Positions 10,964-13,900 of a stretch of DNA of 30,929 bases are shown piece by piece. This DNA is from an uncultured Candidatus Peregrinibacteria bacterium. GTDB lineage: Bacteria > Patescibacteriota > Gracilibacteria > UBA1369 > UBA12473. Location of the stretch: positions 1 through 30,929 of the forward strand of contig CAXCBS010000001.1 in the NCBI GenBank assembly GCA_963980845.1. Reading direction: 5' to 3'. The position numbers and the translations under genes were made by a program. The notes beneath the pieces were generated by a model, which was not told the DNA's origin, searched no databases, and saw only the letters and a program-made list of their open reading frames with translations. How positions within the stretch are numbered: the stretch's first letter is position 1; every line of letters starts with the position of its first letter.

Positions 10964-13900
10964 GCGTCTTCTAGTAGGCTTGCGTTTTTGCCATTCCGCT
11001 AGGAGTGGAGTGGCAGTGAAAATTGAGGAGTAAGTACCAGCAATTAGACCAATAATTAACGCTAATAGGAAGAAGTGAATAGATTCAGCTCCTAAGAAGA
11101 AGAGTGCGGCTACGGTAAACAATGTCGAAATAGAGGTGTTGAAAGAACGCGCGAGAGTTTCGTTTACTGCTCGTTCTGCAACAACATCAAACTCTTCGTG
11201 AGCTTTTTGTAGTTTTAAGTTTTCACGTACACGGTCGAAAGTCACGATAGTATCGTGAACTGAGAATCCCATAATTGTTAGTAGCGCGGTTACAAACAGA
11301 GCGTCAATTTCAACTCCGAGGATACTGCCAAGTAAAACGAAAATACCGAGAGTAATTAAGATGTCATGTACCAGCGCTGCGATAGCCGCCATACCAAATC
11401 GCCAAGGACTGGTGTTTTTAGGAATGCTGCGGAAGGCAAACGCGATATAAAGAACAATCATAATTAAGGCCATGACTAAGGCCATGACAGCTTTGCTTTT
11501 CATACTTGCACCAATAGTTGGGCCAATAGTATTAAAGCGAGTTTCTTCGAGTTCTCCGTAATTATCAGTGAGCATAGTAATGATTGCTTCGTGTGATTCA
11601 TTGGAGATGTGTTTCATGCGAATCATGAGGCTGGTTTCTCCAGTTGAAACGACAAGAGGTTGACCAAAATCAACGGGTATTTCTTTGTCTTCTTCGAGGG
11701 TTGTAAGGCTAGCTTCTTCTAGGTTAACGGCCTGAGGCGCGTCTTCCATGGTGGAAGTTTCTTCTTTTTCGACTACTTGAGTTGTTTCCCCAGTGGAGAG
11801 GAGTTCTTCTTCGAGAGCAGAAATATCATCAGTGATTTCTTGGGTGGAAGGGATAGTTTCATTGAATTGGATTTCGAGAAGAGTTCCTCCAGTAAAGTCG
11901 AGACCTAGGTTTAGACCTTTTAATGGGATAACAATAATAGCGGCTGCAATCAACACTCCAGAAATAGCAAACCAGAGTTTGCGGGCGCGTACGATTGGAA
12001 GTTTAGGATGAGGTCTTTTAGGGACTCCAAGTAAGAATTTGTGATTAGAAAACCTAGTGTGTACTAGAGCGCGGAGTAAGGTGCGAGTAACGATAATAGC
12101 AGTGAACATAGAAATCAAAATACCGAGTGCTAAGTTAACTGCGAAACCACGAATAATTGAGGTTCCGAAATACATCAAAATTGCACAAGTAATTAGAGAG
12201 GAGAAGTTTGAATCACGGATTGAGCTCCAAGCTCGATCAAAACCAACTTCAATTGCTCCAGATAATGGACGACCATTGCGAAGTTCTTCTCGCATGCGTT
12301 CAAAAATCAAGATATTAGCATCTACAGCCATACCAATTGAAAGAACCACACCAGCCACACCAGCTAAGGTTAAAACTACGTGTCCAGCTAGTAAAAAAGT
12401 TAAGAAAAACAGTACAAAACAAGCCAGCATAAAGGAGAGAAGTTTTTCCCATCCCGAGTCTTTGCTGTTCATAATAATTGCTACTAAGACTCCAAATACT
12501 ATGAGGGCAATAACTAGAGCAAAGCCAAGTGGCATAGCTACTTTGATAAAGAAGACTAGTAAGGCTGCGTATAAAAGTAGAGCTAAATTAGCCATAACTC
12601 CCGGTAGGCGGTAGTAAAGGACCATGTACAGGGCAAGCAGGATAAGGCCAAGCATGCCAGCTTTTAGACTGGTATCGAGGGCTGCTTGTCCAAGGCTTGC
12701 TCCAATGGTGTATTGTCCAACAAGAATGATTGGAGCGGGGATAGCCCCAGTGTTTAAGTCGCGAGCTAAGGTGGTGGCTTCTTCGACTGTGAAGTCGCCG
12801 GTGATTTGCGCTCGTCCACCAGTAATTTTTTCATTTACATTAGGTGCGGAAATTAATTCTCCGCCAACAAAAATTGCAACTCTTTTACCAGTGTTACGAC
12901 TAGTGATTTCTTCAAATAATTTAGCTCCTTCGGAATTAAATTCAATGGTTACATAAGGAGAGTAAGTTTGGGAGAAAGCGACGTCAGCGTGGGTGAAATG
13001 TTCACCAGTTAAGCCGGTTTCTTTCCAAGGGTCTGGGGCAGTGGAATAATAGATTTTTGATAGGCTGTATTCCATGCCGGTCATGGTTTCGGTTTCACCA
13101 CCTTTAACATCCATAACTTCGATGATGTGGTACCCAAAAGCGGTTTCTACAACTTCGCTAGAGATGTCTCCAGGGGACATGGCAAAAGCAGCATCTTCAA
13201 AAGCCTTAACCATGGCGTTAGGGCCGAAGTAATCTAAGTAACCGCCAGATTCAGAGGCGCCTGGTTCATCGGAAAATTCCTTAGCAAGATCTTCTACAGA
13301 TTCTCCGTTTTGAGCTCGTTCTAAAAGCTCTTTCGCTAAGGTTTCAGCTTCGGATTGGGAGCGGTCGTTTGCGGAACGTTCAGAGCCTTCATAAGCAATT
13401 AAAATATGACGGGCTTCGACTTCCTTGTCACTGGAAGTGCTGATTTCACCTTCTTGAGCACCTTCTAATTTAATTAAGAAATAGCCTTCAAGTGGGGTGA
13501 GATTGCCGTAACTATCAAAAGTATAGCCATCTGTTGTAAGAATAGGTTCGTTGTAAACATCACCAATTTCCATGTCTTCAATTGCTTCTAGATATCCATC
13601 TGAAAGATCAGTTTCAAAAATAAAGCCTTCGCTTTCATTTGAGAAAAAACTAACAGTACTAGGATTGGCAAGTTCTTCTTCTGCTCCTACTAAGCTAAAA
13701 TCTTCACCATCTAAAATACGATCCAAAGCGGTTTGAGCCATGTTTTCAACGTTTTCGCGGTTTGAAGAGGTCATGGATTCACCACCTTCTTCTTTGAATT
13801 CTAATTGAATGGTTTTACCAACAGTGGCTTTGGCTTCTTCAATGTCTTTAATTCCTGCTAATTCAATAATAATATGTTGTTCATCAGCAATTTCAGAGCG

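Follow-up and report, generated by a model that had tools for sequence, protein, structure and literature searches.

A parvulin module nested in the P1 domain of a SecD-SecF fusion protein from an uncultured Candidatus Peregrinibacteria bacterium

The secD-secF locus

The stretch of DNA analysed here (the window) comprises 30,929 nucleotides of an uncultured Candidatus Peregrinibacteria bacterium (assembly GCA_963980845.1, contig CAXCBS010000001.1, positions 1 to 30,929 of the forward strand), and carries on its minus strand a fused secD-secF gene whose product contains an insert of approximately 255 amino acids (aa; residues 135-390) between the closing strand of the P1 base and the P1 head of SecD. 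In the open reading frame (ORF) list of the window, a single uninterrupted frame holds the whole insert together with SecD and SecF. An earlier reading of the DNA sequence by itself (the original prediction) had proposed that the insert contains one or more parvulin domains, combining pulling and prolyl isomerisation in one chain. The insert is resolved here into an intact parvulin, termed d2, and a second, degenerate one, termed d1. The features that bear on this arrangement are as follows:

10961-14191, minus strand: secD-secF fusion gene, 1076 aa plus stop (ORF, translation, Pfam, NCBIfam)
13790-13966, minus strand: N-terminal part of the P1 base (SecD_1st, residues 76-134) with its closing strand TIQLEFKE (PF21760, E 4.6e-16)
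13436-13789, minus strand: domain d1 (residues 135-252), a degenerate parvulin without the N-terminal β1 (hhalign against d2, Rotamase matches of relatives, Foldseek)
13097-13435, minus strand: domain d2 (residues 253-365), an intact PrsA-type parvulin in canonical strand order (Pfam, PDB, fold, conservation)
13022-13096, minus strand: trailing strand and linker (residues 366-390), the putative permuted β1 of d1 (alignment to single-parvulin SecDs)
12722-13021, minus strand: P1 head (residues 391-490), the mobile substrate-binding head of SecD (PF22599, E 1.5e-31)

Along the protein the Pfam matches run SecD_1st (76-134), Rotamase_3 (253-362) and SecDF_P1_head (391-486), followed by the two SecD_SecF_C halves and Sec_GG, which places Rotamase within the SecD domains as the original prediction had expected. 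When aligned to the SecDF of Thermus thermophilus (3AQP), residues 40-139 correspond to 28-124 and residues 393-546 to 159-313, such that approximately 253 residues occupy the place of 34 in the Thermus protein. The predicted insert of about 250 aa between the P1-base and P1-head motifs is therefore borne out by both the Pfam order and this alignment. The interval originally given for it, 13031-13789 on the minus strand, corresponds to residues 135-387, and that given for the parvulin, approximately 13103-13420, to residues 258-363, in agreement with the Pfam envelope.

The SecDF core around the insert is intact and the protein is a member of SecDF. The match to PF02355 (SecD_SecF_C; E 2.9e-62) falls in two stretches, which are the two transmembrane (TM) halves of the 12-TM RND-like core, and the scores against the NCBIfam models TIGR01129 (secD, 379 bits, cut-off 244) and TIGR00966 (SecF, 299 bits, cut-off 160) lie well above their cut-offs. 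Both P1 subdomains are detected (PF21760 at 76-134 and PF22599 at 391-486) and can be aligned to the Thermus P1, the head with residues 159-260 of 3AQO/3AQP and with a mean identity among relatives of 74%. Given that TM1 spans residues 2-23, the topology of SecD makes P1 extracytoplasmic. Conservation was counted over 102 aligned homologs (99 sequences at some positions); residues L130, E131 and F132 of the P1-base strand are invariant, as are D624 and N626 of TM4, which align with the AVDGN motif of Thermus. From the SecDF literature, D624 is presumably the essential aspartate of the proton path. The full-length AlphaFold2 (AF2) model, built on the alignment of 102 sequences, has a mean predicted local distance difference test (pLDDT) score of 86 and a predicted template modelling (pTM) score of 0.70, with only residues 803-836 below a pLDDT of 50, and it superposes on 3AQP, the entry that describes the F form, at VIA Z 50 and a root-mean-square deviation (rmsd) of 4.0 Å over 683 residues. 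One chain does, as originally claimed, hold a SecDF core and a parvulin nested in P1.

Because the metagenome bin is fragmented (224 contigs), it might be argued that assembly or gene calling produced the gene artificially, as a chimera of secDF and a PrsA-like gene. The stretch is present in marine metagenome runs, and Logan contigs of four runs from two studies span the upstream border at 13789 without differences; no joints or indels were seen in the Logan contigs, at a depth of 2-6 and with the downstream border at 13031 not bridged. These reads are thin, and to that extent leave room for such a join. However, the frame is uninterrupted, AF2 is confident through both borders of the insert, the same layout is seen in 120 of 120 listed homologs from many independent assemblies, and the insertion point is the same across the phylum. 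Misassembly at the borders, which would have undone the original prediction, is thus excluded by the border-spanning contigs and by conservation in independent assemblies, and the probability that remains for an artefact is negligible.

An intact parvulin within the insert

Domain d2 is a true parvulin with a complete, selectively retained active-site pattern. It is matched by Rotamase_3 (PF13616) at residues 253-362 (E 2.5e-28, 99.4 bits, cut-off 22.5) and by Rotamase (PF00639) at 262-361 (E 5e-26, 91.9 bits, cut-off 21.7). The His/Asp/Met-Phe/Thr/His motifs named in the original prediction are all present and conserved among the homologs. In the ARHIL motif, H262 (codon 13406-13408) is His in 97/99; in FSDE, the positions of D308 and E309 are acidic in about 96/99; in MVKAF, the position of M327 is occupied by Tyr in 50 homologs and by Met in 40, and F331 is Phe in 93/102; and in ETAFGYH, the position of T350 is Thr in 70 and Ser in 31 (Thr or Ser in 101/102), G353 is kept in 102/102 and H355 (codon 13127-13129) in 100/102. 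The domain consequently holds both catalytic His, the acidic residue, the Thr/Ser and the Met/Phe proline pocket of a parvulin.

The nearest solved sequences to d2 are the PrsA of Bacillus (6VJ6; E 2.7e-18, approximately 50% identity over 81 aa) and the P2 domain of SurA. The insert modelled alone (96 sequences) reached a pLDDT of 94.6 and a pTM of 0.76, and residues 254-368 match 20 solved parvulins at Z 10-17 with an rmsd of 1.4-3.1 Å, among them B. subtilis PrsA (1ZK6; 1.4 Å over 90 residues) and TbPin1 (2LJ4; 1.6 Å over 106), both at Z 13-17, as well as PEB4 (1.5 Å over 99). Structure prediction therefore returned the parvulin fold, as had been anticipated. Over d1 and d2 together the best Foldseek match is SurA (234-247 columns, E 2e-9), and a SurA cluster of the ESM Atlas aligns with a TM score of 0.55 over 223 residues. 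The PrsA and SurA models of NCBIfam cover the parvulin only and stay well short of their cut-offs, those of PrsA scoring 51-69 bits against 343-361, and no SurA_N-type chaperone core was found by Pfam in the SecDF protein or in the genome search.

A second parvulin, apparently permuted and wrapped around the first

The single complete domain of the original prediction is joined by a second. A profile of residues 128-252 compared with a profile of residues 253-368 gave an hhalign probability of 97.3% (E 1.7e-11, 83 columns), and the domain equivalent to d1 still passes as Rotamase in the distant relatives L002, L008 and L010. Domain d1 begins straight at the parvulin helices, has F238 at the β4 position where d2 has His355, and contains a 14-aa hairpin inserted at residues 222-235. 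It is modelled at a pLDDT of 92-98 and is conserved at positions of its own (A152, G162, D164, F165, G210, G229 and G236).

The origin of this topology is suggested by shorter SecDs of 551-616 aa, which contain one nested parvulin in the order helix 1 to β4 (FGYHII), followed by a strand of the type EV.SRHILIAK. This strand, seen in 9/10 such proteins, is the canonical His-bearing β1 moved behind β4. When the insert was duplicated in silico, the hidden Markov model (HMM) of d2 spanned positions 2-5 to 112-114 across the junction in 4/10 single forms; in the other 6/10, whose linkers exceed what the HMM can span, the evidence is xSHILI after FGYHII. Given the position of β1 after β4 and the restoration of HMM coverage by duplication, the single nested parvulins of these SecDs are circularly permuted by sequence.

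In the protein described here, residues 374-383 (EYSLSKIYYS) align with the trailing xSHILI β1 of the single forms, with K379 in place of His; W389, just before the P1 head, is Trp in 98/102 homologs. Both AF2 models, full-length and insert alone, contain long strands at 231-253 and 367-383. The chain order would thus be the helices of d1 through to its β4, then the canonical d2 (H262 to H355), and then the trailing β1 of d1. Both His expected to pair in d1 are lost (F238 and K379), whereas the pair is kept in d2, which fits d2 sitting in the β4-β1 hairpin of a permuted shell. Domain d1 is therefore apparently a decayed, circularly permuted parvulin that wraps d2 and is closed by the trailing strand 366-390, as judged from alignment and predicted secondary structure. 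The sheet of d1 would be completed by strand 376-383, as suggested by the alignment to the permuted single forms, by the duplication test on those forms and by the long paired strands in the AF2 secondary structure. In the models the last two strands of d1 appear to continue as a β-ribbon into the first and last strands of d2, and because of this continuity d1 and d2 probably form one rigid arm.

Permutation is also seen outside SecD. Approximately 12 of 20 sampled free-standing PrsA-like proteins of other Patescibacteria have the helices, FGYHII and xSHILI, with no β1 before helix 1 (L020, L022, L024, L026, L027, L029-L031 and L033-L036), and the canonical order is found in L018, L023, L028, L032 and L037.

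Distribution and origin of the nested module

All of the listed homologs (120/120) have the same Pfam set, with 49-75% identity over the P1 region. Most are 1000-1120 aa long, a few being shorter partials, and the named sources are Candidatus Peregrinibacteria, Gracilibacteria or Patescibacteria. The database labels are only SecF, SecD/SecF fusion or 'peptidylprolyl isomerase, partial'. In a survey of 401 genomes sampled evenly from this one phylum, Patescibacteria, the insert was matched in 138 at E <= 1e-5, and among the matches listed at least 45 genomes have it in an open frame of 551-1089 aa. These frames fall into size classes of approximately 1030-1090 aa (same order, SecD and SecF fused, whole insert aligned), 797-852 aa (same class), 668-731 aa and 551-616 aa. 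All ten scanned frames of 575-821 aa are SecDs with Rotamase between SecD_1st and P1_head, and a separate SecF ORF of approximately 300 aa lies downstream in the 8 scanned unfused SecDs where one was seen. The insertion point is conserved throughout, being the first base-to-head connector, always between SecD_1st and P1_head. Since nesting is found across the phylum at the same point, it is old and widespread in Patescibacteria.

In three genomes of the same class the insert found no match; a nested Rotamase of divergent sequence is present in two of these, and none could be detected in the third. The SecD of the third genome, of 566 aa (L017:937-2634, genome G127), has approximately 190 aa separating its GG motif from the P1 head, and these may be a fully decayed module. 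Three SecDs of 800-850 aa from one family of the same class (L004, L009 and L057, family f6) have a far bigger insert, with approximately 180 aa from SecD_1st to Rotamase and approximately 60 aa after it, and under table 11 no SecF ORF of at least 250 aa was seen downstream of the L004 and L009 SecDs. Clusters of the ESM Atlas that join SecD(F) and Rotamase bear candidate-phyla-radiation names only (Peregrinibacteriota, Magasanikiibacteriota, Moraniibacteriota and Falkowiibacteriota), a sample that is no proof of absence outside these phyla.

In a tree of 64 parvulin cores (87 columns) the labels cluster, most forks are without resolution, and free canonical and free permuted forms are intermixed; neither a single origin of the nested domains nor an order of events can be derived from it. 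A tandem duplication of one permuted parvulin, like that in other Patescibacteria SecDs, is the probable origin of the twin layout, given that duplication of such a unit gives exactly the arrangement of d1, d2 and trailing strand.

Other features of the protein and of the genome

The fusion gene has three further features:

12386-12541, minus strand: extra hydrophobic helical hairpin (residues 551-602) between TM2 and TM3 of SecD (gap in the 3AQP alignment, AF2)
10985-11983, minus strand: SecF half (residues 737-1069) including the P4 domain (TIGR00966 and PF02355 over residues 872-1069)
11684-11785, minus strand: acidic disordered insert in P4 of SecF (residues 803-836; pLDDT below 50)

At the hairpin, residues 546 to 601 correspond to 313 to 316 of 3AQP, and AF2 places helices at 555-575 and 580-602. 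It is present in 92/92 fused relatives and in 0/10 unfused SecDs of other families, and would raise the number of TM helices from 12 to 14. On this evidence the SecD-SecF fusion and the extra hairpin are specific to this order. Asp and Glu together make up 29% of residues 780-845, and the acidic insert of P4 varies from 13 to 109 aa among relatives.

The genome (1.43 Mb in 224 contigs) is 88.8% complete, and within it PF00639, PF13145 and PF13616 each match this gene alone, making the nested domain the sole parvulin found. A profile search of the same incomplete assembly found neither a cyclophilin nor SurA_N_3. FKBP is matched twice, by a 428-aa frame taken to be trigger factor and by a 139-aa FKBP (L014:454-873, on contig C26 of the genome, G000) with a lipoprotein-type signal peptide ending in IIATGC. 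Two adjacent large surface proteins with SLH domains, one with four CARDB repeats and the other with FN3, are encoded within the window at 2767-6468 and 6499-8841 on the plus strand, and are likely the Sec substrates alluded to by the original prediction. The ORFs flanking the fusion gene, of 525 aa (9227-10804, minus strand) and 471 aa (14742-16157, plus strand), have no Pfam match at E <= 0.001.

Comparison with known systems

The SecDFs of Thermus thermophilus and Deinococcus radiodurans (3AQP, 5YHF, 5XAN and 5XAP) share with this protein the 12-TM RND-type core, the P1 base and head, P4 and the TM4 Asp (Z 44-51), and differ from it in lacking approximately 220 residues in the base-to-head connector, the TM hairpin 551-602 and the acidic P4 insert. 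The nearest parvulin by sequence and fold is that of PrsA from Bacillus and Listeria (6VJ6, 1ZK6, 4WO7 and 5HTF), likewise an extracytoplasmic foldase at the membrane of a bacterium without an outer membrane. PrsA, however, is a separate dimeric lipoprotein with its parvulin inside a SurA-like N/C chaperone domain, whereas here there is neither lipobox nor N/C domain and the flanks are those of SecD P1. SurA (1M5Y) also has an inactive and an active parvulin in tandem, but it is soluble and periplasmic, with an N-terminal chaperone core and parvulins in series, and not wrapped and devoid of SurA_N as in this protein. Given the absence of the chaperone core, the protein is not a PrsA, SurA or PpiD, though it probably works like them.

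A foldase at the translocon has precedents in PpiD-YfgM (PMC9643414), in SurA with the holotranslocon (PMC9987972) and, foremost, in the Sec dome of Mycoplasma pneumoniae. PpiD-YfgM at SecYEG (8ZHT; PMC9643414) is likewise a membrane-tethered parvulin chaperone, placed where chains leave the translocon, and matches at VIA Z 11.4 over 195 residues. PpiD, however, is a protein in its own right, which has a TM anchor, binds SecY and contains a parvulin that lacks catalytic activity, whereas the parvulin described here is part of SecD. The Mycoplasma dome (Mdp436/444/489 with SecDF) likewise belongs to a genome-reduced bacterium and places PrsA-like parvulins permanently on SecDF, coupling translocation to folding, and peptidyl-prolyl isomerase (PPIase) activity has been shown for Mpn444 and Mpn436 (10.1101/2025.04.25.650208; 10.1101/2024.09.05.611430). 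The dome is non-covalent and made of large lipoproteins, whereas the parvulins of the present protein lie nested within the covalent chain of SecD itself. Neither a fusion of SecD with a parvulin nor a permuted parvulin was found described in the literature, most subscription-journal papers lying outside the search. The original suggestion of an uncharacterised architecture therefore holds in that sense, although the architecture itself is widespread in the phylum.

Proposed function

It is suggested that the protein is probably a working proton-driven SecDF whose P1 domain carries a twin-parvulin module that acts as a translocon-tethered foldase or chaperone. The module interrupts the first of the links that join the P1 base to its moving head; the inner domain (residues 253-365) is a PrsA-type parvulin, and the outer domain (135-252 and 366-390) is apparently a decayed, permuted one. 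Such an arm would hold a prolyl isomerase or holdase where SecDF grips chains leaving SecYEG, so that a single protein would serve both export and the initial steps of folding or hand-over. In other systems separate proteins take on this task, namely PrsA, PpiD-YfgM, SurA or the Mycoplasma Mdp dome. That catalysis is under selection is suggested by the active-site residues of d2, which are kept in approximately 100 homologs despite an overall identity of 45%.

Several observations weigh against this proposal. The functional statements are drawn from homology, and predicted secondary structure and sequence logic underlie both the proposed strand pairing of d1 and the proposed position of the active site relative to the groove of the P1 head. 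The module has diverged far more quickly than the core (identity among relatives of 30% for d1 and 45% for d2, against 73-74% for base and head), and M327 is Tyr in half of the homologs. In E. coli the PPIase catalysis of the SurA and PpiD parvulins is dispensable or absent, and for this reason catalysis is possibly not what selection keeps here. The 139-aa lipoprotein FKBP is a second candidate extracytoplasmic PPIase, in which case the nested parvulin would not be the sole one. Furthermore, plain SecDs of 451-471 aa also occur in the phylum and many lineages do well with them, and at least 12 genomes of other lineages carry both a nested parvulin and a free PrsA-like gene. The survey that the original prediction had called for accordingly gives qualified support to its idea that the fusion replaces PrsA or PpiD in a reduced genome: nesting is indeed widespread, the nested domain is the only parvulin found in this genome, and in the sampled genomes of the same class the nested copy is found with no free one; however, the lipoprotein FKBP is present here, and other lineages keep both forms.

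The main rival to the proposed foldase is a holdase or capture arm without catalysis, in which the module would enlarge the binding surface of the P1 head and prevent backsliding or aggregation, in the manner of SurA P1 or the PpiD parvulin. Domain d1 has lost both catalytic His and yet stays conserved at its own positions, in SurA, the tandem arrangement most like this one, an active parvulin is accompanied by an inactive one that binds peptides, and the PpiD parvulin aligns at Z 10.9-11.4, all of which would be expected of such an arm. It would, however, hardly account for the retention of every catalytic and pocket residue of d2 among homologs at 45% identity, or for the presence of both His in the single permuted forms, and a role of this kind is considered possible but unlikely. 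Less likely is a purely mechanical or docking element that does not act on substrates and either makes the hinge between base and head stiffer, or gates it, or fastens SecDF to components of the cell wall or S-layer. The insert does lie exactly in one of the two hinge connectors, d1 and d2 look rigidly joined by the β-ribbon, and SLH-anchored surface proteins are encoded nearby; nevertheless, nothing in the module resembles a wall-binding domain, the conserved parvulin active site would be left unexplained, and the size of the insert, which ranges from approximately 100 to approximately 350 aa between lineages, argues against a precise mechanical role. Taken together, these points make a mechanical element very improbable.

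An extension of the proposed foldase, speculative and rather doubtful as it stands, is that the arm, seated at the hinge, is swung every time the P1 head is driven by protons from the F to the I form. This would make SecDF a foldase or hand-over device powered by the proton-motive force (PMF), and the permuted parvulin, present also in free PrsA-like proteins of the phylum, would have made the nesting possible. Were this the case, the protein would represent a chaperone that runs on the PMF where no ATP is available.

Much is known about both SecDF and the parvulin foldases; the hand-over from translocation to folding is still debated, for instance in the Mycoplasma dome, in PpiD-YfgM and in SurA at the holotranslocon. 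In a naturally occurring covalent fusion the foldase is present in a set ratio to SecDF and at a set place on its pulling arm, and this fusion is conserved over a large uncultivated phylum. It offers a compact, expressible object in which it could be asked whether the parvulin acts on chains held by the P1 head, whether it moves with the proton stroke and whether it can replace PrsA. In addition, a parvulin that was permuted and then duplicated would show cleanly, in a case from nature, how domains come to be circularly permuted and nested.

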